From NCBI GenBank assembly GCA_002269645.1, contig NIVC01001064.1, positions 37,159-101,158 on the forward strand: a stretch of 64,000 nt of DNA. Direction: 5' to 3'. The position numbers and the translations under genes are program-made. The notes below the pieces were generated by a model. It had not been told where the DNA came from, did not search any database, and worked only from the letters and a program-made list of their open reading frames with translations. How positions within the stretch are numbered: position 1 is the stretch's first letter; each line of letters begins with the position of its first letter. Source of the DNA: Macrostomum lignano (taxonomy: Eukaryota). Positions 17,821 to 64,000 of this stretch are shown here, piece after piece.

Positions 17821-18020
17821 TCCCTTAAAGAAGACATTACAATACATCGCTGAATAACGATATCATATGTTGCCTAAAAGTTGGTGTAATGTAAAAGTAC
17901 ATATTTGTCAACTACTGTTATCTATATATATGCGGGTGCACGTCAAAACGGCCACACGTAAAACGGCCTCACGACGTCTAATACGTCTAATATGCGTCTA
18001 ATACGAGCGTACGTCTGTTT

Positions 18021-21234: not shown

Positions 21235-22276
<1,042 letters not shown>

Positions 22277-30406: not shown

Positions 30407-30500
30407 ATTTCTAACTCACCAGCTACAATGAGCCGACTAACAGCCTACATGCTTGCTCTTCCTGTTCTTCCATGTTCTTCCTAATTTGAGTTCCGGAACT

Positions 30501-31163
30501 TACCAAGACTTATTAGGCATCGATTACCTGTCCCAACTAAATCAGGGCATGCTCATAAACTATCCGCAACAGAATATCCATCTCAACGGGAAATGCTATG
30601 AAATCCCTGCTATCACTTTGAAAAAACCCGTTAACTGCATCAGATTAGTTTCCACAGTCAATCTTAACCCATGGGAAACAACTCGAATCCCCGCAAAAGC
30701 CATCGCTAGAGAAAAACTACCTCCAGCCATGCTTTTCGAACACAACGAACGAATCCTGGAGAAGAAACCCATCTGCCTCACACCCGAATTGGTATACCCT
30801 GACGAGACAGGAGAGGGTCAAGTCATCATTTCAAACGAATCTTCAACCCCTATGACGCTATATCCAGACACCAACATAGGATCTTTCGACACAGAAATCC
30901 AAGCTTTTGAAATAGCCAAAATTCAACCAGAAACCCCAACGATGACGGAACAAGAGTTTAAGAACGCCAGTGATTTCGAAGGATCCAACCTGACAGAATC
31001 CCAGAAAGAACAGCTGATTAAGGTTCTTTGGGACAACAAGAAAGCCTTTTGTCTATCCGAGGATGAACTAGGATACACAGACGTAGCGAAACAGGAGCTT
31101 CACATTAAGCCTAACGTGGAGATCAAGCTTAACAAATGGTACCCAATCCCACACCACCTCAAA
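30501..31163 (+). pseudogene. Second Gypsy pol fragment: protease C-terminus, dUTPase-like spacer and RT N-terminal linker
   Basis: LLGIDYL (protease end), then SNLTESQKEQLIKVLWDNKKAF...ELGYTD...WYPIPHHLK, which is fused by deletion to the integrase tail. Confidence 0.65.
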
Positions 31164-31576
31164 GTGGCTCAGGAAAAAAATACCAGCAGAGCTAACAAAA
31201 ATCGAATGGCCCCTACACTAGCTATTGGAACCAGAGTCATGCTACAGATCCCAATGAGACAGGGAAAGCACCAAGCTTTACGGGCCCATACGAAATCGTG
31301 AAAAGAAACAATGCCACGTCCGTCATAATAAGGAAAATCGACGATCCGACGCAAGAATCTTTCCAGGTACACACGGACAGGCTAAAGCCAATAGCATCGC
31401 CAACACTCAAGGTACTGCTCCCCGATCTGCGACCAAGTGATCCGCGAAGAATGCAACGCCAACACAGGCAACTGTTCAGTAAGGAATTGGGCGTACAAGC
31501 TGACGATAAGACGCTCGCGGACACAGTTCGAAAGAAGTACAATCTGAGGAGCAAACCCATACTCCCAGACAAATGA
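31164..31576 (+). pseudogene. Gypsy integrase C-terminal (GPY/F) fragment
   Basis: LAIGTRVML...FTGPYEIV...VHTDRLKP across one frameshift. Confidence 0.75.
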
Positions 31577-31963
31577 TGTCAGGAGATGGGGGGAGAGTAC
31601 AAAGACTATAATGACTATTTGATTTACGTATTCATTCGTTGGCGTGCTGAGCACACTAGAATTAGAAACTCACATTAACTATTTACTCAAATATCAACAC
31701 TTAATTTAACCCCTCTAAAAACTACTCAATATACCATATGTATGACCGACAACTCGATACGCTAGATGACTGCATCCTGGGAGACGAAGATACCCAGACA
31801 CCGTGTCCTATAGTTCAACCCCTTTTCAAATCAACATCTCACGCCGGAACTAATGACCAGAAGTGGCCCGAACAAGACTTGTCAACGTGGATAGAACAAC
31901 AGCAGCACAAACTAAATGCAAACATAGCACTATCCACGAGCAACGACTCCCACAAAGCAACAA

Positions 31964-32224: not shown

Positions 32225-32861
32225 CTCTCAGTCTCATCTATTTCTTCCAAACACTAACCATCACTTCCAACACTAATTAACACTCTTAACCCCAGTCCGC
32301 GCCGCAGGCGCAAAGGGTCTGAAATGGTAGAGAAAGAATAGAAGCTATTTTTAGCCAGCTCACCCACGCACTCAACATTCCATTAAGGCCAGATTTTTCG
32401 TTTTGGTTTTCGTTTTAAAAAATCTGGTCTTAATGGAATGTGGGCATTCATCACCCCACCCACGCAGCCAAATGTTATATATATGCTTATAAAAAGAACT
32501 CAATCTTATCACGAAGCGCAAAAATGAATTCATCCACTAATGCTCACAGCGATTGAAAATGCCATCATATAGCACCCTCAATGCAATGAGCGTTTAAGAG
32601 CCGCCAGGCAAATACTTGCAACTCGAACCCAAACTCTTCGACGGCACCACCAAAACTCCATGTTTCGTTACATCGAGCTTAATAATTTTATTAATGTAAG
32701 AATGACAACGTGGAGAAACGAAGAAAGATTTATCAACGTAATAAAGGTAATAAATAAAATCATATTCATTTAATAACTACATCTAGCTAATAAACACTTA
32801 CTAATTTATATTTTAGAAATATCATCAACAGCCACAAGCGTGTCAGGAGGCACAGAGACGA

Positions 32862-33242
32862 GTGGATGAGTTCATGGAAGAGATCCAAGATGAAGCAACT
32901 CAAGCTATGACTCCACAAAACCAAGGTCAACCAACTCAAGCTATGACTCCACAAAACCAAGAACCAACTCAAGCTACGACTCCACAAAACCAAGAACCAA
33001 CTCAAGCTACGACTCTACAAAACCAAGATCAACCAACTCAAGCTATGACTTCACAAAACCAAGATCAGCCCACACAAGTAAACAAGGAACCAGTCTGCCC
33101 AATCTGCCACCACCCACCAACCACACCCATTAGTATGACATGTTGTCGGGTAATGCTATGTCAAGTGTGTCACCTACAAGCATCGGTGAATGGTGCATTA
33201 ACCTGCCTGAACTGTCGCGCCGAATCAATGAATGTTGATTGA
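32862..33242 (+). CDS. RING-like zinc-finger protein with N-terminal 11/12-aa TQAMTPQNQ repeats (126 aa)
   Basis: CPIC-x11-CC-x4-CQVC-x11-CLNC; five tandem repeats of 33-36 bp. Confidence 0.65.
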   Translation: MDEFMEEIQDEATQAMTPQNQGQPTQAMTPQNQEPTQATTPQNQEPTQATTLQNQDQPTQAMTSQNQDQPTQVNKEPVCPICHHPPTTPISMTCCRVMLCQVCHLQASVNGALTCLNCRAESMNVD

Positions 33243-33434
33243 GAAAGAGGAAAAGAATCAATGACATATTGACAAATATCTCTCTTAAAAAAGGCTCACA
33301 AAAGTAAAATATAAAATATCTCTGTATTCAAACTAAGTTATTACTATCTTTGGATTGAAAAAATAAACAATCTTTATGTCTACCCTTTTTGTGTCCACTT
33401 CGTCTCATTTTTCTGTTACTAAAAATAGACAAAA

Positions 33435-33845
33435 ATGACACACCATACGCAAGTATACAATCTGAATGAATTACAAATAGGAGACCCAGTAGAATACAGA
33501 GGTGAGGGTCTTTTCGACATAATAGGCGCTGCAGCAAATACAATAAAAGATAATATGCCACTAATAGCACAAGCAGGCTCAGCAGCAGGCTCTGTAACCA
33601 ACGCAGTCAAGGGTGGAATAGAATCAGCTAAGGCAGCAGAAGAGCTCAAGAAATTGAGAGAATTTAACGACACCCTCTCGCAAATAAAAGCAATAAAAGA
33701 TTTAAAGCTAGCACAAAAAGTTGCTCAAGCCGCACAACCTACTGAAACACCTACTAAAAGTAACCCATTGAGCAATAAAGATATCCAAGATTTTAATAAA
33801 ATGTTAACCTCAATTAAAGGCGGAAAAGGATTAAAGAAGTTTTAG
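33435..33845 (+). CDS. Viral core or membrane-lytic candidate protein, copy 1 (136 aa)
   Basis: RGEG followed by an amphipathic LFDIIGAAANTIKDN helix and a terminal GGKGL motif, typical of small Polinton virion proteins (inference); conserved in copy 2. Confidence 0.55.
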   Translation: MTHHTQVYNLNELQIGDPVEYRGEGLFDIIGAAANTIKDNMPLIAQAGSAAGSVTNAVKGGIESAKAAEELKKLREFNDTLSQIKAIKDLKLAQKVAQAAQPTETPTKSNPLSNKDIQDFNKMLTSIKGGKGLKKF

Positions 33846-33953
33846 TAATATAAAAATGGACCCAGTTAATGATGAAAATAGTTTATATTTCATAGCAGAG
33901 GTAGTAGACACTTTAAATTTAGATGATACGAGCGTAATAAACATAGCCACGCA

Positions 33954-34866
33954 ATGTTAAAAAGATTAGATCGATTAGGTAAAAAATTGGATTATGATAT
34001 TGATACTTTTAAACTCGCTGCAAAATATGCACAAGAAGACAGACCCATTTCATTTAAGCATAATCGTAAAAACTATAGGTTAACAGAATCTGATGTTAAA
34101 TTCTTATTGGAGACTCACACTAAAAAGGACGGTGGGCTGTTATCCATTTTACCCATTCTTTTAGGACTCGGGGCGGCAGGGCAACTGGATTAGCAGCCAA
34201 AAGAATTCATGACAATCGAAAACAGTTAGCGGAATTAAAAGCAAAACAGGGGGGTGCACTACCACTTGCAACTTTGCTCCCAATAATTTTTGGAGGAATT
34301 GCCGCAGCTGGAGGAGTCGCTGGTGGAGCAGCCGGAATAGCAAAAGCCGTAAATGACAAAAAAGCAGCGGATGAACAAGCTAAAAGAGATGCCGAATTTC
34401 AAAGACAGCAAATAACGCAGGATGCTCAATTTAAGCAAAAACTAATAGATACCATTAATAGTAGCTCAGTAACAGCAGAGCAAAAAAGAAATGCGGAAGC
34501 TAGATTAGCAGCTGGAAAAGGTTTAATATTAAAAGGAAAAACTCACGGCGATGGCTTAATTTTAAAAGGAACGCCCACGGAAGTGGAATTGTAGCAGATA
34601 AATTACATGAATTCGGTCAAACCTTGGGAAAAACTGTTGAAAAAGCAAAGCGATTTTTTGACAATATTGGAGCCAACTTTAGGCCACTTCACTTGCCAGC
34701 TGTTCAAAAGATTTTTAATAAATTGGGAAATGATTTTAATATAATTGAAAAACATGATGGAAGTGGACTATATCTTGAAATGAGACCAAAAGCAGGATCA
34801 GGCATCTTTTTAAATGCAAACGTTTCGGGCAGCGGATTGCTGTTACCAAAAGCGGAACTCGAATAG
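33954..34866 (+). pseudogene. pX-like core polyprotein, copy 1 (two frameshifts)
   Basis: GGLLSILPILLGLG and GGALPLATLLPII...GGAAGIAKAVNDKK...GKGLIL...GSGLYL motifs, typical of Polinton proteins resembling adenovirus pX. Confidence 0.7.
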
Positions 34867-35200
34867 GTTCCAGTGGGGAAGGTCTAGACCAATAAAACAC
34901 AAAATTAAAAAAAGCAAGGGTCAAATATTATCTAAATTTTATTCTATAAAATGGAAGCTCTTTTAGCCCAAATCGACAACCCAGAACTTAGAGCTCAAAT
35001 AGAAGCACAGCTAATGGCCGAAAGGGCAGAAATAGAAGCTAGAGTTAGAGCAGAAAATCAGATACATATACAAAGACAATTAGATAAAATCGAACAACCA
35101 CCAGCAAATGGGGCTGAAGTACTAAATACAGATATTGGAATAAATACAGCTGATAAAGAATATTTTAAACAAATGAAAGAAAAATTAAAGTCCATACTAG

Positions 35201-35643
35201 TGTAACGTCGTCACTTCTGTATTGAAAATGTTCAATTTCGTATTTAAGGTTTTTTTGCAATTAATATTTAAAACTATATTTATTTTGGTCTAATTTTTAT
35301 AACTATTTTTAAGTTACTTTCCCATTTAGTTTAATTTTGTTTATCTAATTTTCAATTAGTGCGGTTATTCAAATTTGCTTCTTGATAGTTTTTGTGTGAT
35401 TGCTCGCGCGCGGTGTGTGGTCTTAGCTCCCGTAGGCTTGGCGGCAGTAGCATTATATTAACGTCTCAGATTACCCTTTGGTAAATAGTTGGCATTGCCA
35501 TACCGTTTCTGACCTACCCGCCATTATCCAGACTAGCAATTGAGCTGTTAAATTAATAATACGCCTAGGAAAAGATTAAAACTAAGACTCAGCACGCGCA
35601 CGCGCATTAGTCCCATGTTCTCGAACTAAATAAACTCGTCACA
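35201..35643. mobile_element. Solo LTR (443 bp) inserted in copy-1 polB
   Basis: TGTAACG...CGTCACA termini; 4-bp TSD CTAG at 35197-35200 and 35644-35647; absent at the equivalent site of copy 2. Confidence 0.88.
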
Positions 35644-36502
35644 CTAGATAGATATACTATGAGGCCAAATAACAAACGACAACCAATTAAGTATAAAATA
35701 GAAATTGAAACAGAATTTAAAAAACCAAATATGATTAGTGCAGATTCAGAAATTGAAGTAATAAATACCTTTTCACAAGAATCATATAAGTCACTTCTAT
35801 CCATGGGAACATACGACAATCAATTTGATCAGATAGAAGCAGAGTTTGATGAATGGATAGATAAGATGACAGAAAATGGATCAGGGTTTGTATTTGTTTC
35901 TTGTAATTCATCCACAGTAAAGATTGTTCCCATAGAAATTCTTAAAGGAATATCACACCTGCTTTTAGGATTTAAATCTCCAAAAATTATAAACCCCAAG
36001 AATATGGATAATAAGTGTTTATTATGGTGTTTACTAATTTATAAGTACCATGAACAAGTAACATCACATCCCGAAAGAATATCTAATTATACAAAGTATG
36101 AGGATGAAAAACATTGTATCAAAAATCAAAAAAATACAATGACAAAAATCGGCAAAATTGTAATATATGCCGATTTTGAAGCAACAAATATTCCCCTCGA
36201 ATACCACAAACAACAAGAAACAACTGAAAACACAAAAATTTGGCGCAGCAGTTTCCAAATAGTTATTGTATATATGTAGACTCCGTAGCAGATAATGTTT
36301 TTAAATCGAGGACATTTACTCATTTTGGTAGTGACTCAGGCAAACACATGGCAGAAACATTAGTAACAATACTAGCAATCTTCGCCCCCCGTTGGGGGAC
36401 ATCTGGATAGAATCTCTGTTCTCTACAAGTAACAAAAAGACAGCCAAATAAAGCCTTCACAAAGACGACAGACAAACTGCTCAAAAAAGTGTAATGCAAA
36501 AA

Positions 36503-36730: not shown

Positions 36731-36829
36731 CACCATACAATAAGTAGCTAGTGCTACAATTTCCTTAGCTATAGTGGCTCCTTTAAAATTAGCATGACGC
36801 TTACTTTTACGTTTGAAATTGTGTAAATT

Positions 36830-39800
36830 TTATGTTTGACATGGTGGCTCTTTAATGTTTGACATGGTGGCTCTTTTATGTTCTACATGGTGGCTCTCTT
36901 ATGTTTGATTCGGGGTTTTTTTAATGTTTGAAATAGTGGCTCTTTTATGTTTGACATGGTGGTTCTTTTATGTTTGACATGGTGGCTGTTTTATGTTTGA
37001 CATGGTGGCTCTTTAATGTTAGACATAGTGGCTCTTTAATGTTTGACATGGTGGCTCTATAATGTTAGACATGATGGCTTTTTAATGTTCGACATCGTGG
37101 CTCTTTAATGTTCGACATGGTGGCTCTTTAATGTTCGACATGGTGGCTCTTTTATGTTTGACATGGTGGCTCTTTTATGTTTGACATGATGGCTCTTTTA
37201 TGTTTGACATGGAGTCACGTATATGTTTGACATGGTGGCTCTTTAATGTTTGACATGGTGGCTCTTTAATGTTTTACGTGGTGGCTCTTTAATGTTCTTC
37301 ATGGTAGCTCTTTTATGTTTGACATGGAGTCACGAATATACTTGACATGGTGACTCGTTATTGTTCGACATGGTGGCTCTTTAATGTTAGACATGGTGGC
37401 TCTTTAATGTTAGACATGGTGGCTCTTTAATGTTTGTCATGATGGCTCTTTAATGTTTGACATGGTGGCTCTTTTATGCTTGACATGGTGGCTCTTTACT
37501 GTTTGACATGGAGTCACATATATGTTTGACATGGTGGCTCTTTAATGTTCGACATGGTGTCTCTTTAATGTTTGACATGGTGGCTGTTTTATGTTTGACA
37601 TGGTGGCTCTTTAATGTTAGACATGGTGGCTCTTTTATGCTTGACATGGTGGCTCTTTACTGTTTGACATGGAGTCACATATATGTTTGACATGGTGGCT
37701 CTTTAATGTTCGACATGGTGTCTCTTTAATGTTTGACATGGTGGCTCTTTTATGTTCGACATGGTGGCTCTTTTATGTTTGACATGATGGCTCTTTTATG
37801 TTTGACATGGAGTCACGTATATGTTTGACATGGTGGCTCTTTTATGTTCGACATGGTGGCTCTTTAATGTTTTACGTGGTGGCTTTTTAATGTTCTTCAT
37901 GGTAGCTTTTTTATGTTTGACATGGAGTCACGAATATACTTGACATGGTGGCTCTTTTATGTTCGACATGGTGGCTCTATAATGTTAGACATGGTGGCTC
38001 TTAAATGTTCGACATGGTGGCTCTTTAATGTTCGACATGGTGGCTCTTTAATGTTAGACATGATGGCTCTTTAATGTTTGACATTGCGGCTCTTTAATGT
38101 TTGACATGGTGGCTCTTTTATGTTCGACATGGTGGTTCTTTTATGCTTGACATGGTGGCTCTTTAATGTTTGACATGGTGGCTCTTTGATGTTTGACATG
38201 GTGGCTTTTTTATGTTTTACATGGTGGCTCTTTAATGTTGGACATGGTGGCTCTTTAATGTTCGACATGGTGGCTCTTTAAAGTTAGACATGGTGGCTCT
38301 TTAATGTTAGACATGGTGGCTCTTTAATGTTCGACATGGTGGCTCTTTAATGTTAGACATAGTGGCTCTTTAATGTTAGACATGGTGGCTCTTTAATGTT
38401 AGACATGATGGCTCTTTAATGTTTTACATTGCGGCTCTTTAATGTTTGACATGGTGGCTCTTTTATGTTCGACATGGTGGCTCTTTTATGTTTGACATGA
38501 TGGCTCTTTTATGTTTGACATGGAGTCACGTATATGTTTGACATGGTGGCTCTTTTATGTTCGACATGGTGGCTCTTTAATGTTTTACGTGGTGGCTTTT
38601 TAATGTTCTTCATGGTAGCTTTTTTATGTTTGACATGGAGTCACGAATATACTTGACATGGTGACTCGTTATTGTTCGATATGGTGGCTCTATAATGTTA
38701 GACATGGTGGCTCTTAAATGTTCGACATGGTGGCTCTTTAATGTTCGACATGGTGGCTCTTTAATGTTAGACATGATGGCTCTTTAATGTTTGACATTGC
38801 GGCTCTTTAATGTTTGACATGGTGGCTCTTTTATGTTCGACATGGTGGCTCTTTTATGCTTGACATGGTGGCTCTTTAATGTTTGACATGGTGGCTCTTT
38901 GATGTTTGACATGGTGGCTTTTTTATGTTTTACATGGTGGCTCTTTAATGTTGGACATGGTGGCTCTTTAATGTTCGACATGGTGGCTCTTTAAAGTTAG
39001 ACATGGTGGCTCTTTAATGTTTGACATGGTGGCTCTTTTATGTTCGACATGGTGGCTCTTTTATGTTTGACATGATGGCTCTTTTATGTTTGACATGGAG
39101 TCACGTATATGTTTGACATGGTGGCTCTTTTATGTTCGACATGGTGGCTCTTTAATGTTTTACGTGGTGGCTTTTTAATGTTCTTCATGGTAGCTCTTTT
39201 ATGTTTGACATGGAGTCACCAATATACTTGACATGGTGACCGTTATTGTTCGATATGGTGGCTCTATAATGTTAGACATGGTGGCTCTTAAATGTTCGAC
39301 ATGGTGGCTCTTTAATGTTCGACATGGTGGCTCTTTAATGTTAGACATGATGGCTCTTTAATGTTTGACATTGCGGCTCTTTAATGTTTGACATGGTGGC
39401 TCTTTTATGTTCGACATGGTGGCTCTTTTATGCTTGACATGGTGGCTCTTTAATGTTTGACATGGTGGCTCTTTGATGTTTGACATGGTGGCTTTTTTAT
39501 GTTTTACATGGTGGCTCTTTAATGTTGGACATGGTGGCTCTTTAATGTTCGACATGGTGGCTCTTTAATGTTAGACATGGTGGCTCTTTAATGTTAGACA
39601 TGGTGGCTCTTTAATGTTCGACATGGTGGCTCTTTAATGTTAGACATGATGGCTCTTTAATGTTTTACATTGCGGCTCTTTAATGTTTGACATGGTGGCT
39701 CTTTTATGTTCGACATGGTGGCTCTTTACTGTTTGACATGGAGTCACATATATGTTTGACATGGTGGCTCTTAAATGTTTGACATGGTGGCTCTTTAATA

Positions 39801-41440
39801 TTCGACATGGTGGCTCTTTAATGTTTGACATGATGGCTCCTTAATGTTTGACATGGTGGCTCTTTTATGTTCGACATGGTGGCTCTTTTATGCTTGACAT
39901 GGTGGCTCTTTACTGTTTGACATGGAGTCACATATATGTTTGACATGGTGGCTCTTTTATGTTTGACATGGTGGCTCTTTTATGTTTGACATGGTGCCTC
40001 TTTTATGTTTGACATGGTGGCTCTTTTATGTTTGACATGGTGGCTCTTTAATGTTTGACATGGTGGCTCTTTTATGTTAGACATGGTGGCTCTTTAATGT
40101 TAGACATGGTGGCTCTTTAATGTTAGACATGATGGCTCTTTAATGTTTGACATTGAGGCTCTTTAATGTTTGACATGGTGGCTCTTTTATGTTGGACATG
40201 GTGGTTCTTTTATGTTCGACATGGTGGCTCCTTAATGTTCGACATGGTGGCTCTTTAATGTTCGACATGGTGGCTCTTTTATGCTTGACATGGTGGCTCT
40301 TTACTGTTTGACATGGAGTCACATATATGTTTGACATGGTGGCTCTTTAATGTTCGACATGGTGGCTCTTAAATGTTCGACATGGTGACTCTTAAATGTT
40401 CGAAATGGTGGCTCTTTAATGTTTGACATAAAGTCACATATATGTTTGACATAAAGTCACATATATGTTTGACATGGTGGCTCTTAAATGTTTGACATGG
40501 TGGCGTTTTTTAATATCTGACATGGTGGTTCTTCTATGTTTGACATGGTGGCTCTTTAATGTTTGACATGGTGGCTCTTAAATATTTGACATGGTGGCTT
40601 CCAAATCTTTGACATGGTGGCTCTTTAATATTCTACATGGTGGCTGTTTAATGTTCGAAATGGTGGCTCTTTTTTGTTCGACATGGTGGCTCCTAGTTGT
40701 TTGCCATGGTGGCTCTTTAATTTTTGACATGGTGGCTCTTTAATGTTCGACATGGTGGCTGTTTAATGTTCGAAATGGTGGCTCTTTTATGTTCGACATG
40801 GTGGCTCTTTAATGTTTGACATGGTGGCTCTTTAATGTTAGACATGGTGGCTCTTTAATGTTCGAAATGGTGGCTCTTTAATGTTTGACATGGTGGCTCT
40901 CTTATGTTCGAAATGGTGGCTCTTTAATGTTTGACATGGTGGCTCTCTTATTTTTGACATGGTGGCTCTTTAATGTTCGAAATGGTGGCTCTTTTATGTT
41001 CGACATGGTGGCTCTTAAATGTTTGACATGGTGGCTCTTTAATGTTTCACATGGTGGCTCTTTAATGTTTAACATGGTGGCTCTTTAATGTTCTTCATGA
41101 TGTAGCTCTTTTATGTTACACATGGTGGCACTTTAACGTTCGACATGGTGGCTCTTTATGTTCGACATGGTGGATCTTTTTTGTTCTACAGGGTAACTCT
41201 TTATGTTTGATACGGTGGCTTTTTAATGTCTGACATTTTAGCTCTTTTATGTTCGACATGGTGGCTCCTAATTGTTTGACATGGTGGCTCTTTAATGTTC
41301 AAAATGGTGGCTCTTTAATGTTCGAAATGGTGGCTCTTTAATGTTCGAAATGGTGGCTCTTCTATGTTTGACATGGTGGCTCTCTTATGTTTGACATGGT
41401 GGCTCTTCTATGTTTGACATTGCGCTTCTTTAATGTTTAG
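36830..41440. repeat. 23-bp minisatellite (ATGTTTGACATGGTGGCTCTTTA), about 200 copies with higher-order blocks, inside the Helitron
   Basis: Unit visible throughout; variant blocks recur 713 and 574 bp apart (38071, 38784, 39358). Confidence 0.97.
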
Positions 41441-42808
41441 CAGTTTTGTTGTGTTTTTAAGGTGTTTTAATAAAAAAATCTTTTTGCACTACTAAGATTT
41501 GAACCCAGGTTGCTACATTAGCATTCCAGTCTGTTCGCATCAGGGCTATTTCTTTTCAATTGGAGAACATGAATTGTGGCCCTTATAATTCAATTCTTAC
41601 AGCAAGTCAATTGGAGTAAAAAGTTATGACATAATCAATTTCTCAGTCAGCCAGTATCAGTCTCACTTCAAGTTAGCAATATGGTTACGCAATTTAAATC
41701 ATGTCGTATGTGCATTTCCTCGGCACTGTTTTCAACTTGTTGTGATGCAATCTTTATCACAATCGGAATTCAGTCAGTCAGTTTTTTCTATAGCATTCTT
41801 ACAATGCATTTCAAGTCGAAAATTTTGCTTGACCTTTGCAAAAAAGCATGTTTTTCGAATATTTAATCCCTTTAGCATTTAGCAATTTCTTAGCCAAGAT
41901 GCATGTACCGTCCCAGGAAAATTTCTGAATGAATGGTGCAAGTTTGAAGAAAATCGGTTGAGCCAATTTTTCTGAAATCTATCGCATACCTACCTACCTA
42001 CCTACCCACAGACAACTCATTTTTAGTATATAGGATTTGAGCAAATCCAATGTCAATATGAAGAACTATCAAAGGAGATAAATATGACTAAAAAGGATAG
42101 AGATAATTACAAGAATGCAACAAATTGTTTTCTATGCAACAGAGAGTTAAATAAGAAAAATAAGATACTAGAACATTGTCATCTAACGGGAAATTATCGC
42201 GGGGCAGCATGCAGATCATGCAACGCAAAAGAAGGAAAAGGATGTGAGGAAATACCAGTATTTTTATAATGATTCTGGTTATGATTTTCATTTCCTTGTT
42301 TGCGAATTGCTACATTTAGGTAAAGATGAATATGAAGTAAATATTTTACCAAAAACATCAGAAAATTACATTTCAATAACGTATGGTAAAAAAAATTCCA
42401 CCTAGTTTTTCTAGATTCCTTGAGATTCTTATCAACCTCACTAGCTAATGTTGTTTCCTCATTAGTTCCAACCCCAATGGATTTAGAAACAGTAAAGAAA
42501 AACTTTCCAATTCTATTGAATAAATTTAAAAAAGAAAAACTGTCCGAGGAAGAACTAATACTATTAACTCGCAAGGGTGTATATCCATATGAATATGTAT
42601 CATCTGAAAAGGTATTTAATGATACTCAACTAACCCCAATTGAAAAGTTTTATTCAATACTATCACAATCAAATACAACTGAATCGGTTTATGAACATGC
42701 AAAAAAAGAATGGAACTATTTTAATTGTAAAACATTTAAAGATTATCATAACATCTATCTTAAAGCAGATGTTCTCCTATTAGCTGATGCTTTTGAAAAC
42801 TTTATAAT

Positions 42809-42979
42809 TGTACGCTCTGCGCGGTAATAATGTACTTGGCTTGGTCGATGAACTAACTCGTAGCAATACTCTTATTACGCAATGCTCTCGTGCCTATAAA
42901 TATATTGAATTGAGCAGTCGGCTCATTTAAGTGCATCGTTTTCTCTCGCCAAACTAAATAGCTAGTCTGAGTCATTACA
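42809..42979. mobile_element. Short solo LTR (171 bp) inserted in copy-1 polB
   Basis: TGTA...TACA termini; 5-bp TSD ATAAT at 42804-42808 and 42980-42984; absent in copy 2. Confidence 0.85.
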
Positions 42980-44458
42980 ATAATCATACATATGAGAATT
43001 TTAAAATTGATCCCGCCTATTGCTTTAGTGCACCCGGATTAACATGGGCATGCGGATTGAAATATACAGATGTGAAAATTGATTTGCTAACTGATCATGA
43101 TATGTTGTTAATGATTGAGCGAGGAATTCGCGGCGGATTCTCTGGGGTTTTAGGAGATAGATATACTAAAGTAAATAATAAATATTTACCAAATTCTAAT
43201 AAAAAACAGAAATCATCATATGTATTATATCTAGATGCAAACAATTTATATGGAGGCTGCATGAAACAAAAATTACCAATTGCCGATTTCCAATGGGAAG
43301 ATGATCCCAATTATTATAAAAACATTTCCAAAGGAAGGGGATGCATAGTTGAAGTAGATTTAAAATATACTCGGCAAGCAAAAGCAGCAACATATAAATA
43401 TCAACTAGCTCCAGAGCATTGTTCAGTTAATGAAGATGAATTATCAGAAACACAAAAAGGCTATCTAAAAGCAGAAAACTCAAAACACCTAGCAACAAAA
43501 AAGCTAATTCTAAATTTATTCGATAAGAAAAACTATGTAGTGCATTATAACCTTCTACAATTTTATGAAAAGCAAGGACTAAAGGTAACCAAAGTACATC
43601 GAACAATTTCTTTTATAGAAGAAGATTGGTTAGCCAAATATATTGACTTTAATTCAAATCAGAGACGGATGGCAAAAACAACTTTTGAGAAAGATTATTG
43701 GAAATTAATGAACAATGCATTTTATGGACAAACAGTTGAAAATATTAGAGATAGAACCCAATTCCATTTAGAAAAGGATATTGAAAAAGCAAAGAAATAT
43801 TTTACCAAACTAAACTTTAAAGACTTTATAAAATTTGATAATGAATTTATGGGAATACATATGAGAAATAAAACAACAAAATTTCTTAAACCAATCTTTA
43901 TTGGAATGGTTGTTTTAGATTATGCAAAGCTAGTAATGCATGAATATTATTATGATGTTATAAATAAAACTTGGCCAGATAACTATCCAATATATGCAGA
44001 CACCGACAGTTTGGTATTTAAGGTTGAAACTGACGATCGGGCACAGCCCGCGAACCAAAGGTTCAATGTCTATAAAGATATGGAAACAATTCAGGATACA
44101 TTAGATACATGTGATTACCCCGATAATCATCCTCTAAAATCAAATAAAAATAAGAAAGTTGTACTTAAAATGAAAGATGAATTAAATAGCAAAATCATAA
44201 CTGAGTTTATAGCAATAAGATCAAAATGCTATGCATTTAAAGTTTTAGGACAGGAGGGGGAAATTAAAAAATAAAAGGGGTTTCAAGAGCAGCAGTTAAA
44301 AAGATAACTTTTGATGATTATAAAAACGTACTATTAGATTACCTTAACACAATTGAAAAATATCATGCACTACAATATCGATTAAATTCAGATCAACATA
44401 AAATGTTTGTTATTGAGACTGATAAAAAACACTAAATCCATTTGATGATAAGAGGTAT

Positions 44459-44748
44459 TAGTAATATGTAAATGTACGCTTCTAGACCCAGAGGCACAAA
44501 TTAAACAGCACATTTGAAGGGCTAGAGGGGGGACACGGGGGGGAATCAAAAAAACACATTAAGACACTAAACAGCACCACTAACACCCCCAATACCCACC
44601 AATAGCCTCAAAAAATCAAAAACACTATTAACATACCCAATCAAATCCACCCATCAGAAATCAAACCCCCGTGTCCCCCCCCTTTAGCCCTTCAAATACC
44701 CATGTTTAAATAGGATCTGATCTAGAAGCGTACATTTACATACTACTA
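44459..44748. repeat. Fold-back (inverted repeat) at the left end of viral copy 2
   Basis: TAGTA(A/G)TATGTAAATGTACGCTTCTAGA and ATTTGAAGGGCTA(G/A)AGGGGGG(G)ACACGGGGG recur inverted. Confidence 0.88.
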
Positions 44749-44818
44749 CATTCAAACACTCTATAACCCACCGCCAGCGCCGCAGGCGCAAAGGGTCTGA
44801 AATGCTTGGTTTTTTCTG

Positions 44819-45087
44819 ATGACTAACACAGGAATTCGGGGATCTATTCGCGCTACACACAAACAAGTTTGCATTGCAACAATATAGATGGCTATAGCAA
44901 ACTTTATTCTATCGCCCCGAAGGGTCGCAGACACAGTCTGATGACTAACACAGGAATTTGGGGGTCTACTAACGCTACTCACAAACAAGCTCGCATCACA
45001 ACAATAGGGTCGACTATAGTAAACTTCATTTTATCACCCGAAGGGACGCAGACACAGTTTATGACTAACACAGGAATTCGGGGTCTC
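44819..45087 (+). repeat. Tandem ~121-bp repeat (two full units and one partial) starting ATGACTAACACAGGAATT
   Basis: Unit starts at 44819, 44941 and 45061. Confidence 0.85.
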
Positions 45088-45358
45088 GAGTGCCCATCCA
45101 CCCACAGCACAATATTCTGAGTCTTGCATTTTATTCAAACCAAAACGTGAGGCTACATTTTATTTTTTTATTTTCGAAAAAATTTTCTCACGTTTTGCTC
45201 TCACCATGTGACTTAAATGGAATGCATGAATTCTTTCTATTAACATGAAAAAATATATATGAGCACTCCAGAGCATGAATTAGCTCACATATTTTATCTT
45301 CGCAAATTTTTCATCTTTATTAGTTCTCTCACTATCTTATCATTAAGCAGCTAGTAAA

Positions 45359-46090
45359 ATGAACGACAAGGAAATTGAAAGCATTGTGAGCAATTTGAAG
45401 AGTCTAACAAAGAAAAGCAATACATCAATTGCTCTATTTTTGAATCGCCTTCCAAAAGAAAAACGCGGTTCCTTCAATGATACTTTGGTAAGCCTTGTTC
45501 ATCAAGCCATCGATAAGACGATTGAGGATGACGAATCTAGTAGCAACAAGAAGAAATCAAACAAAGCCGAACAAAGTGCAAGATTCATTGTCAACTTGAA
45601 AGCGTGGCTATCTAAGCATCACACTGAGGCAATTCATTTCAAGACAGACTATCGAGAGCTGGAGGAGCTGATTAAGGCTGAAATCACATCGGACGACACC
45701 GCCACTAGATTATACGCGGATCTATGCATCATTGAAGAAAAGGTCGATGAGATTAAGGGAGTGATTGGCGCCAAAAAAGCCGACACCATCGCGTTTCTAT
45801 CCGAGACTATGAGCAATCAGGAAATTCAAAGTCGTCTTAAGTGCGGCGACAACTATGTTTCACGAATGAAAACTTTCCACAAACTTTGTGAAGACTATCC
45901 GGCTCTTCGTTTCGCGCCATACGCATACAACACAATTTTGCAGTATAAAACCACCATTGAGTCTGCTGCAAACTCAGACGAAGACTTTTGCTCGATGTTG
46001 AAGACACCGCTGACGCCACAATTCAAAGGACGCGATGACGACACAGTGGTGGGGAGCAGCCGGAAAGTTTCTATTAGCCACCGGAAATGA
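45359..46090 (+). CDS. Hypothetical viral protein, possible C-terminal HTH-like domain (243 aa)
   Basis: Intact ORF with higher GC than the viral core; MSNQEIQSRLKCGDNYVSRMKTFHKLCEDYPAL resembles an HTH plus (K/D)YP motif seen in Polinton accessory ORFs (inference). Confidence 0.6.
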   Translation: MNDKEIESIVSNLKSLTKKSNTSIALFLNRLPKEKRGSFNDTLVSLVHQAIDKTIEDDESSSNKKKSNKAEQSARFIVNLKAWLSKHHTEAIHFKTDYRELEELIKAEITSDDTATRLYADLCIIEEKVDEIKGVIGAKKADTIAFLSETMSNQEIQSRLKCGDNYVSRMKTFHKLCEDYPALRFAPYAYNTILQYKTTIESAANSDEDFCSMLKTPLTPQFKGRDDDTVVGSSRKVSISHRK

Positions 46091-46322
46091 TTGATTTTAT
46101 TTGTTTTAAATAACTGATAATAACTGAATCGCTTGTTTTAGACATTATTCAATAACAGTTTAAAATTCCACACCGTTTTAACCACCATCAACAGTTTTAT
46201 AATGTATAATATTTATAAAGAAAAGCGCTAACTGATTCGAACTAAACTAACACTTAACAAAATTATTTACTCTCTTACTCCTCATTGTTCCTTTTTCATA
46301 GATAAATGGGGCAACTCAACTA

Positions 46323-46414
46323 GCGCCAATCTTTATAATTATAAAGAAAAGCGCCAATCTTTATAATTATAAAGAAAAGCGCCAATCTTTATAATTATAA
46401 AGAAAAGCGCCAAT
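46323..46414. repeat. Three 28-bp direct repeats, each with the perfect palindrome CTTTATAATTATAAAG
   Basis: GCGCCAATCTTTATAATTATAAAGAAAA at 46323, 46351 and 46379, partial at 46407; degenerate unit near 46205. Confidence 0.9.
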
Positions 46415-46500
46415 TCTAGCAACACTATGTTCCTGTGGAGTCTAGCCTATTCTTTTGTGTGTTCACGCATTCATTTTTCTGTTACTAAAAATAGACAAAA

Positions 46501-46911
46501 ATGACACACCATACGCAAGTATACAATCTGAATGAATTACAAATAGGAGACCCAGTAGAATACAGAGGTGAGGGTCTTTTCGACATAATAGGCGCTGCAG
46601 CAAATACAATAAAAGATAATATGCCACTAATAGCACAAGCAGGCTCAGCAGCAGGCTCTGTAACCAACGCAGTCAAGGGTGGAATAGAAGCAGCTAAGGC
46701 AGCAGAAGAGCTCAAGAAATTGAGAGAATTTAACGACACCCTCTCGCAAATAAAAGCAATAAAAGATTTAAAGCTAGCACAAAAAGTTGCTCAAGCCGCA
46801 CAACCTACTGAAACACCTACTAAAAGTAACCCATTGAGCAATAAAGATATCCAAGATTTTAATAAAATGTTAACCTCAATTAAAGGCGGAAAAGGATTAA
46901 AGAAGTTTTAG
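46501..46911 (+). CDS. Viral core or membrane-lytic candidate protein, copy 2 (136 aa)
   Basis: One amino-acid difference from 33435-33845. Confidence 0.55.
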   Translation: MTHHTQVYNLNELQIGDPVEYRGEGLFDIIGAAANTIKDNMPLIAQAGSAAGSVTNAVKGGIEAAKAAEELKKLREFNDTLSQIKAIKDLKLAQKVAQAAQPTETPTKSNPLSNKDIQDFNKMLTSIKGGKGLKKF

Positions 46912-47019
46912 TAATATAAAAATGGACCCAGTTAATGATGAAAATAGTTTATATTTCATAGCAGAGGTAGTAGACACTTTAAATTTAGATGATACGAGCG
47001 TAATAAACATAGCCACGCA

Positions 47020-47922
47020 ATGTTAAAAAGATTAGATCGATTAGGTAAAAAATTGGATTATGATATTGATACTTTTAAACTCGCTGCAAAATATGCACAA
47101 GAAGACAGACCCATTTCATTTAAGCATAATCGTAAAAACTATAGGTTAACAGAATCTGATGTTAAATTCTTATTGGAGACTCACACTAAAAAGGACGGTG
47201 GGCTGTTACCCATTCTACCAATTCTTTTAGGACTTGGGGCAGCAGGAGCAACTGGATTAGCAGCCAAAAGAATTCATGACAAGCGAAAACAGCTAGGGGA
47301 ATTAAAAGCAAAATAAGGGGGCATATTGCCACTTGCAACTTTGCTCCCAATAATTTGTGCAGGAATAAGAGCAGCTGGTGGAGTAGCAGGTGGAGCGGCT
47401 GGAATAGCAAAAGCCGTAAATGACAAAAAAGCCGCTGATGAAAAAGCTAAACGAGAGGCTGAATTCCAAAGACAGCAAATAACGCAGGATGCACAATTTA
47501 AACAAAAACTTATAGATACCATTAACAGCAGCTTATCAACAGCAGAACAAAAAAGAAATGCAGAAGCTAGCTTAGCAGCTGGAAAAGGTTTAATATTAGA
47601 AGGAACAACCCAAGGCGATGGCTTCATTTTAAAAGGTACAACTCACGGCGAAGGAGTTGTAGCAGATAAATTACATGAATTCGGTCAAACTTTGGAAAAA
47701 ACCGGCGAAAAAGCTAAAGGATTTTTCGATAATATCGGAGCCAACTTTAGGCCAGCGGTTCAGAAGATTTTTAATAAACAAGGAAAAGATTCTAACATAA
47801 TTGAAAAACATAATGGAAGCGGACTATATCTTGAAATGAGACCAAAAGCAGGTTCAGGCATCTTTTTAAATGCAAACGTTTCAGGCAGCGGATTAATATT
47901 ACCAAAAGCGGAACTAGAATAG
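47020..47922 (+). pseudogene. pX-like core polyprotein, copy 2 (one in-frame TAA at 47314-47316)
   Basis: The two ORF halves are in frame; copy 1 has CAG at the equivalent codon, implying one ancestral ORF of about 300 aa. Confidence 0.72.
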
Positions 47923-48003
47923 GCTCCTGTGGGGATGTCTAGGCTACTAAAATTCAAAATTAAAAAAGCACGAAAAAACATTGTATAAATTTTATTCTAT
48001 AAA

Positions 48004-58679: not shown

Positions 58680-59348
58680 ATGGCTAACACATTCGAATGC
58701 CCTGTCTGTCTAGACGATACTCTCACCAAGAAACCTCCGTGTATATGTGTAAATAACCACCGCGTATGCGGATCCTGCTTAAGTGATGCTCACCATATCC
58801 AGCCCTGGCAAGTCTGCCCCATGTGTCGTGGCGCCCTACGACAATGCATGATTTGTACATCATGGCGCACCCAAAAGTTCTGTACAAATGAACATTTCGT
58901 ATGCATGCAGTGTATCAAGAAATTAGCCAAACGAACAGTGCTCACGTGCCCTGAATGCGATGCTTTTCCTCTAGTAAAAATGCGCGATCAACTTTTACGT
59001 ATACAACCGGTACAAACGGTTCAGTTATCTGCATCCATAGTGCATCAACTCGCTCCAATAGACGTTATTCGCCGACTAGACGAGTGGCCCCTCCCTAGAA
59101 ACTCTCGCTCCGCATATGTGCACCTCGTTATGTACGCACATCATAACAGACACCAATTAATACTCTTTCCGTTACAACGTATTCAGCAACGTCTTTTACG
59201 GTACCTATCAATATGCGAGCAACCAAGTCTCCCATTTCACTGTGCTATAATACCTCTACTTATCAAAAAGCATGCCGAATTAACGATGCTATTAACCTAC
59301 AGCGAGATAACAGCCTGGCAAGGCGATACGTATGATGAAGTAGATTAG
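58680..59348 (+). CDS. Double-RING zinc-finger protein 1 (222 aa), putative E3 ligase
   Basis: CPVC...CVNNHRVCGSC...CPMC then CMIC...CTNEHFVCMQC...CPEC; C-terminal EWPLP motif. Confidence 0.8.
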   Translation: MANTFECPVCLDDTLTKKPPCICVNNHRVCGSCLSDAHHIQPWQVCPMCRGALRQCMICTSWRTQKFCTNEHFVCMQCIKKLAKRTVLTCPECDAFPLVKMRDQLLRIQPVQTVQLSASIVHQLAPIDVIRRLDEWPLPRNSRSAYVHLVMYAHHNRHQLILFPLQRIQQRLLRYLSICEQPSLPFHCAIIPLLIKKHAELTMLLTYSEITAWQGDTYDEVD

Positions 59349-59389
59349 TAAAGTTTACCAGTACCTTCTATTCTCTCACCCCCCCCCAG

Positions 59390-59899
59390 ATGGAGTCATG
59401 TCCCGTGTGCTACGACGAGGACGTCACACCGTTTGTCTACTGCCAGAACGGACACAGATTATGTTTCTTCTGCTGCACCACACAACTGATCGACAAATGT
59501 CCCTTGTGCCGAGCACCACCTACGAACTGCAAAGTGTGCAACGCCGTCCCACAAATACAGCTCTGCGAAAATAAGCACTGGGTGTGCCACGACTGCGCAC
59601 TATCGATACAGCGACACGACATCACGACCTGTATCACCTGCAACCAACAAATTCTCAACGACAACTTGCCGCAGCTGGACACGAACGAACAAAAAATCAA
59701 GCTGACGATGGAAAGCATGAACGGCATGACAACCACTCACCTAGCACAAATCATCCGGAACTGGCCTATTCCCCACGACCGACAACCGCACCTAACCTCC
59801 CTGTTTCAACGGGCCCGTTTGTACGCAATGACAGCAACTACGATACCGGCGGAGGAAATCTACCTACAACTACTACAGGACACCAACACTGCCGAGTAA
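59390..59899 (+). CDS. Double-RING zinc-finger protein 2 (169 aa)
   Basis: CPVC...CQNGHRLCFFC...CPLC then CKVC...CENKHWVCHDC...CITC; NWPIP motif. Confidence 0.8.
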   Translation: MESCPVCYDEDVTPFVYCQNGHRLCFFCCTTQLIDKCPLCRAPPTNCKVCNAVPQIQLCENKHWVCHDCALSIQRHDITTCITCNQQILNDNLPQLDTNEQKIKLTMESMNGMTTTHLAQIIRNWPIPHDRQPHLTSLFQRARLYAMTATTIPAEEIYLQLLQDTNTAE

Positions 59900-60206
59900 G
59901 TGCCGGTCCAACATCTCATCTGGCCGATTGCGGTATTAACAGCGAATTTAAATGACTACTTTATAATGATGCTTAACGATCACTTTGCGTCATGCTACTA
60001 ACAGTTCAAAATGTCTAAATATCACTTACGTTTAAGTAACGAAGGCCAATTAGAAGCTACACAGGGACACCCCTGTCTACCCACACCTACCCATTACAAA
60101 CAATGACGCTTTTAATACGGACCACTATATAAGTAGCTACACCGAATACCAGTCCATACCCTCACCCACTCCCTTACTCACCCAATCCAACGAGAAAAAT
60201 TCACAA

Positions 60207-60815
60207 ATGGATCACAACGACGACTGCCCCGTCTGCCTTGAGAGCAAACCCTTTCAAAGGCCAATGTGCCAGTACGGCCATCGGGTTTGCTTCTCCTGTT
60301 GTGACAGGGGGCTTTTCGACAGATGTCCACTCTGTCGAGACCCCCTAATCAACTGCAGCCTCTGCGGGGACGATCCGCAACTGAAGCTGTGCAGTTCCAG
60401 GCACTGGAGCTGCTTTAGCTGCCTGCAGAGGCTGGGGCGGCAGGGCATTACATACTGCCCAACCTGCACCAATTCCCTGGAAGCGCCGGCCGCAGAAATC
60501 GCCCGACGGGAGGACTTTCAACCGGAGCTCACACTCCACGATCTGGAAGCCCTCACCGCCCTGGAGATCTCCGCCAACGTGCAAGACTGGCCACTACCGA
60601 CCGAACTACACGGAGCACGGCGGAGTCTCATGACAGCGGCCCGGCGCTGCACCCTGACCGAAACCCTACTAAACCCACAAGATGTATATTACCACCTACT
60701 AGAAGCCGCAGAATCCCACCACCATCACCAACTCCAATTCCTCATTTACCCCATAGCAGTATTAATGGTCAGGGTGCAAAGACTCTTCCACAGCTTCCTA
60801 GCCGAACACCTTTAA
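60207..60815 (+). CDS. Double-RING zinc-finger protein 3 (202 aa)
   Basis: CPVC...CQYGHRVCFSC...CPLC then CSLC...CSSRHWSCFSC...CPTC; DWPLP motif. Confidence 0.8.
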   Translation: MDHNDDCPVCLESKPFQRPMCQYGHRVCFSCCDRGLFDRCPLCRDPLINCSLCGDDPQLKLCSSRHWSCFSCLQRLGRQGITYCPTCTNSLEAPAAEIARREDFQPELTLHDLEALTALEISANVQDWPLPTELHGARRSLMTAARRCTLTETLLNPQDVYYHLLEAAESHHHHQLQFLIYPIAVLMVRVQRLFHSFLAEHL

Positions 60816-61060: not shown

Positions 61061-61088
61061 ACGAATTTTTCGTAAAAAAGGGAGATAT
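61061..61088 (+). other. Polypurine tract preceding LTR B
   Basis: GACGAATTTTTCGTAAAAAAGGGAGATAT directly abuts TGTAGAG, the usual layout at the 3' end of a Gypsy internal region. Confidence 0.6.
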
Positions 61089-62096
61089 TGTAGAGATCTC
61101 CAAATAAGATACAAAGTATACTACTATAAGTAGCAACATGAAGATGCGAAAAACTCGAATGTTACAAAAATTGCAAATTGTCATACTCTATTTTTAAAGA
61201 CCACGAAAACAACAAGTGACCATCTTTTGCAAAATTTAAATTTAGAACTCCGAATATGGTATCGGCGCTCAAAGCTAATGTATTCCATAGGGGTCAAATT
61301 TCCAAAGCGCTAAACTGTCACCTACTAAAAATAATCTGTTTTTCAAGAAGTTTTCCTATAAATACAAGCCAAAATCCGAGCTAAAAATCTCAGACTCGGA
61401 GCAGCCTCTGAAGATCTTGAAGCTTGCTGGAGCAGCTAAGCGAGGCTACATCTCTGAGGAAATACCTACCGTTCGGTAAGCTCTTGTTCGAGCCTTTGTT
61501 ATTGATTTTGAGAGCGATTTATTGCCGGCCGCTACTGTCCAGTCGATTCGACTGAGTTCATTGAATTTGAGGCCTCCCATTTTCCTAAGGGATTGGATAG
61601 GATCTGCGGACCGATTCCGATACCCTTAGAGGATTATCGAGTTAATTGATTTTGGTTATCCTAGATTAACCGATAGGAGCACACGACTCCGATTCCGTTA
61701 TTGCTAGAAGAAGACGCCCTTCTTGGAGGACCTCGTGGTTATTACAGAAAGTTGATTGTGTTATAAGGGCGTCTCGTTGATATTGATTACTGAGCTTAAG
61801 GCCTATATTGATTTTTGCATTCGAGAAATACTGCGACGTCGCCTGATCTGATTGTCACGCTCTCATTCGGCCGATTCGAGACTTCAAGAAGATTCCTCCG
61901 GAGAAGAAGAAGATTTGAAGAAGCGAACTCAACAAACGGGCACAACAAAGAAGATACAAGGAACGAGATCGGAGAACCTGCCCGACACAGAAGAGGAGCC
62001 CGCCACCGTAAGTAAACACTTTAATCTGTTCCCAGGCTTAAGTGTCTGGAAGTGGGAGTTTTCGGGAGACTGATCACCTCCCGAATCAACTATTCA
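61089..62096 (+). mobile_element. LTR B (1008 bp), same family and orientation as LTR A
   Basis: TGTAGAGATCTC start, TCAACTATTCA end; long shared blocks with 29160-29825 (e.g. CCGATTCCGATACCCTTAGAGGATTATCGAG). Confidence 0.78.
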
Positions 62097-62683: not shown

Positions 62684-63284
62684 AACCTGTTGCCTGTGAA
62701 ATATACCACAAGCCAATGTCCCCTCATGCTCTCAACCTGTTGCCTGTGAAATATACCACAAACCAATGTCCCCTCATGCTCTCAACCTGTTGCCTGTGAA
62801 ATATACCACAAGCCAATGTCCCCTCATGCTCTCAACCTGTTGCCTGTGAAATATACCACAAGCCAATGTCCCCTCATGCTCTCAACCTGTTGCCTGTGAA
62901 ATATACCACAAGCCAATGTCCCCTCATGCTCTCAACCTGTTGCCTGTGAAATATACCACAAGCCAATGTCCCCTCATGCTCTCAACCTGTTGCCTGTGAA
63001 ATATACCACAAGCCAATGTCCCCTCATGCTCTCAACCTGTTGCCTGTGAAATATACCACAAGCCAATGTCCCCTCATGCTCTCAACCTGTTGCCTGTGAA
63101 ATATACCACAAGCCAATGTCCCCTCATGCTCTCAACCTGTTGCCTGTGAAATATACCACAAGCCAATGTCCCCTCATGCTCTCAACCTGTTGCCTGTGAA
63201 ATATACCACAAGCCAATGTCCCCTCATGCTCTCAACCTGTTGCCTGTGAAATATACCACAAGCCAATGTCCCCTCATGCTCTCA
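62684..63284. repeat. Homogeneous 50-bp tandem array, 12 copies
   Basis: AACCTGTTGCCTGTGAAATATACCACAAGCCAATGTCCCCTCATGCTCTC repeated, with one variant base near 62762. Confidence 0.97.
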
Positions 63285-64000
63285 CCCTCGGTGTTCAACC
63301 CCTCCAAAAAATTACAGGTCTCCTTTCTCTCCAGATATTTTACTTTCACACACAACTCCCCATTGTAAATGTCGTGTCGTAGCAATAAGTAGGACTCTTT
63401 TCTATTTGAGATAGCTCTTAGCTGAGCACAGAATATACGAGACTTCAACTGATAGCCAAACCGGCCTTTATATTAACTTGACAACAACCGACGGCAACAT
63501 GCCGCCTACATCTCGAGTACAGAGCGATCCAACTTCAAGCTTTAGCATATAGATAGAAAGATGCAACGTGCCGCGCGCACACTAAGTACATTGGTAATGA
63601 GTACACTAGATATTAAGTACGCAGATACGCAACGCGAGTCAGAGATAGTTAATGGGCCCCGCCAAGCGGCGCCACAGTAAATATGACCTCCTGGTAATAA
63701 TAATAGTTTTATATAAGGGGGTGAGTCGACTCGCGAGTGCGCGAATGCGCCGAGCAATAAGATGGAGCTCACCCCCTCATACTCGTATTAAACTACTACT
63801 ACTCCTTACCGGACGTATCCTGCCCCACTTACCTGACCCACCTGTTCTTCCCTATCCTGTTCGTTGAGATCCAGTCTGAATGGTGCAGCTTTTCACTACT
63901 GCATAAAAGACGGTATCGAGAAGGCCAGCAGTCGCCGTCCGGAAATTGACCAGCCAGAGAAGGTCTGCGCCTATCTTAATGACAAATTGGAATCTGAACA

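Follow-up and report, generated by a model that had tools for sequence, protein, structure and literature searches.

Double-RING accessory genes of a gag-env-pol Ty3/Gypsy LTR element in Macrostomum lignano, predicted to encode ubiquitin ligases

Introduction

Complex retroviruses and large DNA viruses characteristically carry accessory genes that turn ubiquitin on the restriction factors of their hosts, and to our knowledge few counter-defence proteins from LTR retrotransposons are known. Flatworms harbour Ty3/gypsy elements of the order GAG-ENV-POL, the 'ancient errantiviruses', whose env is of the gB type (eLife 108449, PMC13524379). One of these, among the rows examined, is Mlig_errantivirus_2, with an LTR of 864 nt, a length of ~10.6 kb and 16 copies. 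The LTR families of M. lignano have also been catalogued in PMC12801592, whose main text holds no match for RING, ORF or splicing and whose supplement has RING matches. In the giant Gypsy elements Burro/GYPSM1 of planarians, as described in the part of PMC6431247 covered here, Env lies in frame between gag and pol, as in the element analysed below, and extra domains related to ubiquitination and apoptosis are present (AIR1, MATH/TRAF, BIR, BCL2-like and Ubi/SUMO). LTR elements of bdelloid rotifers carry after pol a non-env, family-specific accessory ORF (ORF3), again as here, and accessory ORFs in this position are typically made from spliced messages (PMC5408684, in the portion covered). Compact pseudoknotted RNAs that precede an ORF, as one does in our element, include the HDV-like ribozymes at the 5' ends of R2, L1Tc, RTE and Baggins (PMC6765202, PMC13725137). 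In the sections of these papers covered, ribozymes at the 5' position in LINEs release the message and help to translate it (PMC6765202), and ribozyme cleavage can yield translated subgenomic RNAs in viruses (PMC13725137).

Here we analyse a locus of M. lignano for which an earlier reading of the sequence (the original prediction) had proposed a tandem array of paralogous double-RING genes carried by a mobile element.

Results

A cassette of three double-RING genes

The window (the whole stretch of DNA that was analysed, 64,000 nucleotides of contig NIVC01001064.1) contains the cassette and its surroundings as follows.

58113-58476, plus strand: 5' part of a gene of a Polinton-like virus; context, outside the cassette, cut by the LTR-element fragment
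58470-58481, no strand: junction of virus DNA and LTR-element DNA, a short A-rich stretch common to both sides
58475-58571 (end approximate), plus strand: polyprotein remnant, last ~30 codons (integrase tail)
58584-58652, plus strand: structured RNA with an H-type pseudoknot, an A-rich linker and a helix that closes around an invariant hairpin core (58626-58644)
58680-59348, plus strand: gene 1 (type A), RING1-RING2-helical WP domain, 222 aa, open
59365-59389, plus strand: splice acceptor (pyrimidine tract and CAG), directly 5' of the gene 2 ATG
59390-59899, plus strand: gene 2 (type B), same architecture, 169 aa, premature stop at 59897-59899
60125-60133, plus strand: TATA-like box, candidate internal promoter of gene 3, 74 nt 5' of it
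60207-60815, plus strand: gene 3 (type B), same architecture, 202 aa, open
61074-61088, plus strand: polypurine tract (PPT); the same tract precedes the 3' LTR of sibling elements
61089-62096, plus strand: 3' LTR, TG...CA, 1008 bp, matching both LTRs of the C391 element at 80-88%

The three intronless plus-strand ORFs of the original prediction were recovered, each with two C3HC4 RINGs and a WP(L/I)P motif, and all 16 zinc ligands and the WPxP align among them. As had been proposed, they are strongly diverged, ORF2 being 25% and ORF3 27% identical to ORF1. The further claim that all are open holds for ORF1 and ORF3 but not for ORF2, which ends at the premature stop; the homologous frame, open in sibling copies, ends at 60001, leaving the window copy 34 codons short.

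Among 29 members of the family, each of the eight C3HC4 zinc ligands is retained in 25-29, in both RINGs. Sina_RING is the best Pfam match in 25 of the 29 and the spacing of RING1 is SIAH-like, in agreement with the core noted originally; in the window, the match exceeds the curated cut-off for ORF2 only. The E2-binding marks of a RING are a hydrophobic loop-1 residue, a loop-2 proline and an arginine after the last cysteine, and this arginine helps to activate E2-ubiquitin. RING1 carries a loop-1 V/I in 23/29 members, the loop-2 proline in 27/29 and the arginine in 29/29, whereas RING2 has the proline in 15/29 and the arginine in 0/29. This difference in the arginine suggests that RING1 is likely the catalytic finger and RING2 likely a scaffold. 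Ubiquitin-ligase activity of the double-RING proteins is predicted from these features and seems to us quite probable, bearing in mind that RING folds also occur without such activity.

The structure model of gene 3 (pLDDT 90.7, pTM 0.81) consists of two RINGs and a helical domain. Profile and fold searches match the RINGs of the E3 proteins TRIM21, SIAH1 and RING1B, every match being to a single RING; the fold matches also include arenavirus Z, with weak ones to viral RINGs. For the helical WP domain the best fold match has a Z of 5.7, within the common range, and the ESM Atlas returned generic RING matches below 0.9 only and nothing for residues 95-202 of gene 3, results that show neither absence nor novelty. 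A BIR-like reading of the WP motif was rejected, the domain being all helical in the model. The SIAH features (two zinc fingers and a beta-sandwich substrate domain) were not found, as the arrangement is RING-RING-helical and SIAH1 matches RING1 only. No named family spans the whole protein, which agrees with the initial description of the family as an unrecognised one. A word-index search yielded two single-RING proteins only. Single SIAH-like RING proteins with coiled coils and RING1-like spacing were seen on small contigs (P0001, P0002), and at 32817-33242 the window has a single-RING ORF that follows Q/T-rich repeats and shows no DNA relationship to the cassette.

When 1.84 billion representatives were searched with a profile, four proteins matched at E up to 1e-30: a gene model of Macrostomum lignano and three Logan proteins that have the complete architecture. 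The Logan relatives are ~30-42% identical, over their full length, to their best matches in the M. lignano genome, and the family therefore likely extends to other genomes. None of the 131 pattern matches from a metagenome scan with the gene 1 alignment was confirmed. A tree built from 29 proteins sets the 9 rows of first-position genes apart (100/100) from the 20 rows of genes in second and third position.

The cassette belongs to a Ty3/Gypsy element

The three ORFs belong, as 3' accessory genes, to a Ty3/Gypsy LTR element of the gag-env-pol type, an assignment that we regard as practically certain. The proposal that a mobile element encodes them could thereby be made specific: with family pol, LTR and RNA motif as neighbours, the genes are cargo of an LTR element. 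In this family a single polyprotein of ~2,500 aa contains zf-CCHC, a weak viral fusion glycoprotein match, protease, RT, RNase H and integrase, and three sibling elements have the order PR-RT-RH-IN after gag. Open polyproteins stop ~130 nt 5' of the first RING gene, and 3' of the integrase the sibling flanks hold one to three RING genes, then the polypurine tract and then the 3' LTR. TG...CA LTRs, a PBS, a PPT and target-site duplication are all present in siblings. Their LTR pairs are 99-100% identical and come with 4-bp target duplications, indicating that the family, which has ~100 copies, moved recently. The env segment lies between gag and protease and has two hydrophobic segments and a furin-like site; it matches Monjiviricetes_fusion at E 4e-5 to 3e-4, below the curated cut-off, and gave no match to PDB sequences. 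PTAP and PPP-rich motifs were seen by eye in the polyprotein 3' of the env part.

In a protein search of the M. lignano genome, 150 of 208 candidates were scored and 150/150 matched. Context was counted in 69 regions selected from the genome matches, which together hold 103 cassettes: family pol lies within 700 nt upstream of 62/103, a family LTR within 1.2 kb downstream of 80/103, and the RNA motif adjoins 62/103. At least one of these three marks was found for 87/103, the association with LTR elements for which the original prediction had proposed to look. Of the 16 cassettes without marks, 12 lie on contigs where copies of the family form nested clusters, and four are lone fragments; two of the 16 (C356 and C1588) are decayed. 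Ordinary intron-containing host genes, the outcome that would have spoken against the prediction, were not encountered: full-length RING-gene matches are single pieces, so that no intron-containing version was seen among them, and the features of an ordinary host gene (introns, a single locus, no element context) were not found.

The genome also has dense nested or tandem clusters, with 5-10 copies of the family within 60-80 kb (C2121, C87, C1130, C272, C4009, C669), which are possibly piRNA-cluster-like traps or the result of the element targeting its own copies. A second, distant gag-env-pol-like element of 13.9 kb was observed at C1405:256064-269953 (L043-L044); its LTRs are 99.9% identical and end in TA...TA, with a 5-bp target duplication, and it carries a 266-aa 3' ORF of no assigned kind and no RING.

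Selection on the cassette and its possible role

Pairwise dN/dS was computed by the Nei-Gojobori method for 24 pairs of natural copies, a crude measure in which pairs are not independent and several are near saturation. Three of the 24 were saturated, and 19 of the 21 computable pairs lie at 0.12-0.30, in line with the selection that had been suspected from the open frames. Two near-identical young pairs gave 0.42 and 1.28, neither significant. The RINGs and the helical domain have similar dN/dS. In one polyprotein pair, gag, protease, RT, RNase H and integrase have values of 0.02-0.05, env has 0.10 and the spacer 0.57; the RING genes thus stand well above pol (0.02-0.05). An arms-race excess of replacement changes appeared in none of the dN/dS pairs. 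Judged from these ratios, the RING genes are under purifying selection.

Subfamilies carry three RING genes, two, one truncated, or a stub. At least 44 genome matches have a truncated gene 1 (by frame length, 23 rows with a 144-aa gene 1 and 21 rows with a 70-aa stub), and the 15 such loci examined have gag-env-pol parts, lack a second RING gene and continue directly into the LTR, so the cassette is dispensable in cis. Derivatives without pol, of 6.9 kb and 4.7 kb, retain both RING genes, and their LTRs are 100% identical. A trans-acting shared good fits the truncated copies and the pol-less derivatives; recent loss fits too.

The reading that we favour, with a probability of roughly 0.6, is that these are selected accessory genes of a gag-env-pol element whose products would act as RING ubiquitin ligases on host proteins, most probably those that hold the element in check. 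RING1 would bind and activate a host E2, RING2 and the helical WP domain would hold a substrate or partner, and the proteins so marked would most likely be those restricting the element. The ligases would act in trans, so that copies that lost them could still spread. Taken by itself, the identification of the targets as host-defence factors is slightly better than an even bet.

Several other roles have to be weighed. We consider it rather improbable that the proteins serve the element's own life cycle (ubiquitin/ESCRT budding, Gag turnover, RNA export or an arenavirus Z-like matrix role) and not the countering of host defence. The steady purifying selection with no sign of rapid change would suit such a function, as would a small RING fold that resembles arenavirus Z and the PTAP and PPP-rich motifs after env in an env-bearing element; however, gag-env-pol subfamilies without most of the cassette have spread recently, and repeated duplication and divergence into two or three paralogues fits several targets better than one structural job. 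Still less credible to us is the view that the cassette profits the cell or animal in which the element resides, perhaps by preventing cell death or suppressing rival elements, so that the element gains indirectly. It could explain why the 6.9-kb and 4.7-kb derivatives keep both RING genes between identical LTRs, although this retention may reflect where deletions fell, and the apoptosis and ubiquitin domains of planarian Burro elements (PMC6431247, in the part covered) offer a parallel; the young near-identical pairs, on the other hand, show no measurable selection (0.42 and 1.28, not significant), and the search of the M. lignano genome turned up no host version fixed as a single copy. Passive cargo that was captured a single time and is in decay would account for the many copies with stops or truncations, window ORF2 included, and for the two high-copy subfamilies that lost most of the cassette, but it is very improbable and largely refuted by a dN/dS of 0.12-0.30 between subfamilies up to synonymous saturation, by retained splice acceptors and by relatives in other datasets that retain the whole architecture.

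The window copy and the adjacent virus

Of the hallmarks of an LTR element, the window copy retains the PPT and 3' LTR only; in this LTR a TATA lies at 61356, and sites resembling splice donors lie at 61476 and 62008. The remnant from 58475 is an 87% DNA match to C391:137235 onward, where the translated tail is the integrase tail. The copy is a 5'-truncated relic of the LTR element joined into a gene of a Polinton-like virus, and the adjacency is a rearrangement. GC is 0.33 on the virus side of the junction and 0.48 on the LTR-element side, and the 185-aa ORF at 58113-58670 is a chimera of virus gene and LTR-element DNA. The array had been described as lying between the virus and a PPT-LTR, which is right by position, but the cassette is in fact joined into the virus gene at ~58470-58481.

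This virus gene, with a weak match to the Eco47II restriction endonuclease (Pfam E 3e-4, below cut-off), has 40 other matches in the genome. Six of six other copies run on as ORFs of 161-171 aa with a different C-terminus, and a RING match was found near none of the six (3.2-3.5 kb around each), so the link to the virus implied by the original prediction is not supported. That the genes belong to the adjacent Polinton-like virus, like the adintovirus oncoid RING genes, is suggested by their position and by a weak fold match to such a RING (E 0.055), but was rejected for the window and has hardly any probability left, given a junction that interrupts a virus gene, the lack of a RING match around the sampled virus copies, the GC jump and cassette DNA that matches the LTR family.

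The virus itself is an AT-rich Polinton/adintovirus-like element (42300-58470 and 33400-36300), with broken pieces of a protein-primed polymerase with an endonuclease VII domain, an A32-like ATPase at 55030-55740 and likely capsid genes, partly duplicated. A 100% identical copy of the cassette and virus junction is present at C1063:100470-103770 of the same genome, either assembly redundancy or a recent duplication. Elsewhere in the window, 29148-31914 holds LTR and RT fragments that belong to the RING-bearing family and, after them, parts of a different Gypsy family. There are also a hAT transposase in two ORFs (7443-10273), a non-LTR element with endonuclease and RT parts in opposite orientation (17998-20719), and tandem arrays of (GTTA)260 at 21235-22276, of a 23-bp unit x200 at 36828-41438 and of a 50-bp unit x12 at 62684-63288.

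Possible routes of expression

Each gene of the putative ligase cassette likely has its own route of expression. Read-through of the pol stop codon into gene 1 was rejected, as frames differ between subfamilies or stops intervene. A 70-nt RNA element starts ~12 nt past the pol stop and gene 1 follows it; between subfamilies the RNA is 71-95% identical and its flanks 50-73%. The pseudoknot structure has 97.6% of cells paired, with two pairs in which both partners differ, although just three sequence variants contribute them, and RNAalifold recovered the nested helices without covariation. Rfam 15 gave no credible match, a result with which a variant of a known ribozyme class is still compatible. 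The 19-nt core occurs 99 times in the M. lignano genome versus 0 times for a control, and the sites compared by eye precede a first RING gene.

The core was also found at 120 or more metagenome loci, of which 80 were taken, giving 79 usable instances. Chance matches in a bacterial gene, with no structure over shuffles, make up 47 of the 79; the other 32 form the closing helix in 26 cases (8.7 in shuffles) and the pseudoknot in 16 (1.8 in shuffles), with different letters. A model trained on host copies alone gives nine instances 45-55 bits. The motifs of L233 and L199 stand directly before endonuclease or endonuclease-RT ORFs of non-LTR elements, which we read as RTE clade. A RING or pol match was found in 0/80 of the metagenome loci with the core, and the RNA pattern was found in no viral contig. 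Pseudoknot-hairpin RNAs in unrelated metagenome contigs were noted at L233:140-232, at L199:1670-1836 (two in tandem) and in L172, L182, L189, L221 and L224; in L182 a good RNA match lies within a contig of bacterial genes.

The segment 58584-58652 is therefore presented as a candidate ribozyme or internal translation start for gene 1, which would be expressed through this RNA after the pol stop, by self-cleavage or by internal initiation. Self-cleavage, predicted by analogy, we would put at somewhat under even odds. One contig of run X1 is identical to 58584-60468 and starts at the first base of the RNA element, but contigs break where copies diverge and cannot show RNA ends, and we gave it no weight.

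For gene 2, a message spliced from a start in the 5' LTR is proposed. A CAG lies 0-2 nt before the ATG in 12/12 second-position genes, against 53/835 background ATGs; an adjacent AG was found for 2/7 later genes and 0/9 first genes. In run X3, on a sibling element, the LTR donor L162:3043 is joined to an acceptor at 7385, 2 nt before the gene 2 ATG (GT..AG), a joint seen in one contig with a short side of 29 nt, in one of three RNA-like runs and in a sibling subfamily. X1, X2 and X3 all show splicing of an intron within the LTR (L162 2604-2915). Run X16 has neither joint (3043-7385 or 2604-2915), and the X runs, none of which is listed as RNA, were treated as RNA by guess. Gene 3 would be served by the candidate internal TATA promoter; TA-rich boxes were seen by eye before 5/5 third-position genes.

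Discussion

This selected, young, multi-gene candidate set resides in a laboratory flatworm with RNAi, and if the putative ligases act as we propose, its targets could name host anti-retroelement factors. For the dynamics of helpers and cheaters, the subfamilies with three, two, truncated or stub genes offer a series provided by nature. A lead of its own is the structured RNA, which recurs with wide covariation in unrelated contigs and is not in Rfam. A bolder picture may be entertained, although we find it doubtful as a whole: an invertebrate 'complex retrovirus' whose ligase cassette would destroy restriction or silencing factors of the host in trans, with cheater subfamilies that lost the cassette and exploit it, and with gene 1 released and translated via a LINE-derived ribozyme-like RNA that came to lie within an LTR element.

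The element family appears to have been catalogued already (eLife 108449). Mlig_errantivirus_2 matches our subfamily with the 144-aa gene 1 (C440: LTR 864, 10,588 bp; PBS on C460, C2219 and C1310) by dimensions and PBS, not by sequence, and the rows of PMC13524379 that were examined contain none of the 11.3-12.5 kb subfamilies in which two or three RING genes are full. Its main text has no match for RING, ubiquitin, accessory, zinc finger, splic or ribozyme. We found no description of RING accessory genes after an integrase, or of the RNA core, in the literature covered, outside which lie most subscription journals, figures and Repbase. The accessory cassette reported here is selected, belongs to an element of a known kind and has a form for which we found no description in that literature.

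The proteins share with SIAH/Sina and with viral RING E3s (ICP0, p28, iridovirus and giant-virus proteins) the RING1 spacing, the Sina_RING match and weak fold matches; they differ from SIAH/Sina by a second RING and an all-helical domain, in place of the SIAH zinc fingers and TRAF-like substrate domain. Compared with the HDV double pseudoknot, the helix order of the window RNA could not be fitted (by hand); unlike the HDV-like ribozymes of non-LTR elements, it lies within an LTR element and has no Rfam match. The bdelloid ORF3 is a single ORF, not a paralogue array, and its cargo is a GDSL esterase, a DEDDy exonuclease or TM proteins; PMC5408684, in the portion covered, has no match for RING or ubiquitin. 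In the Burro elements, as far as the covered part of PMC6431247 describes them, the extra domains reside in the polyprotein or in upstream ORFs of a 30-kb element, whereas here separate double-RING genes follow the integrase in an element of 11-12 kb.
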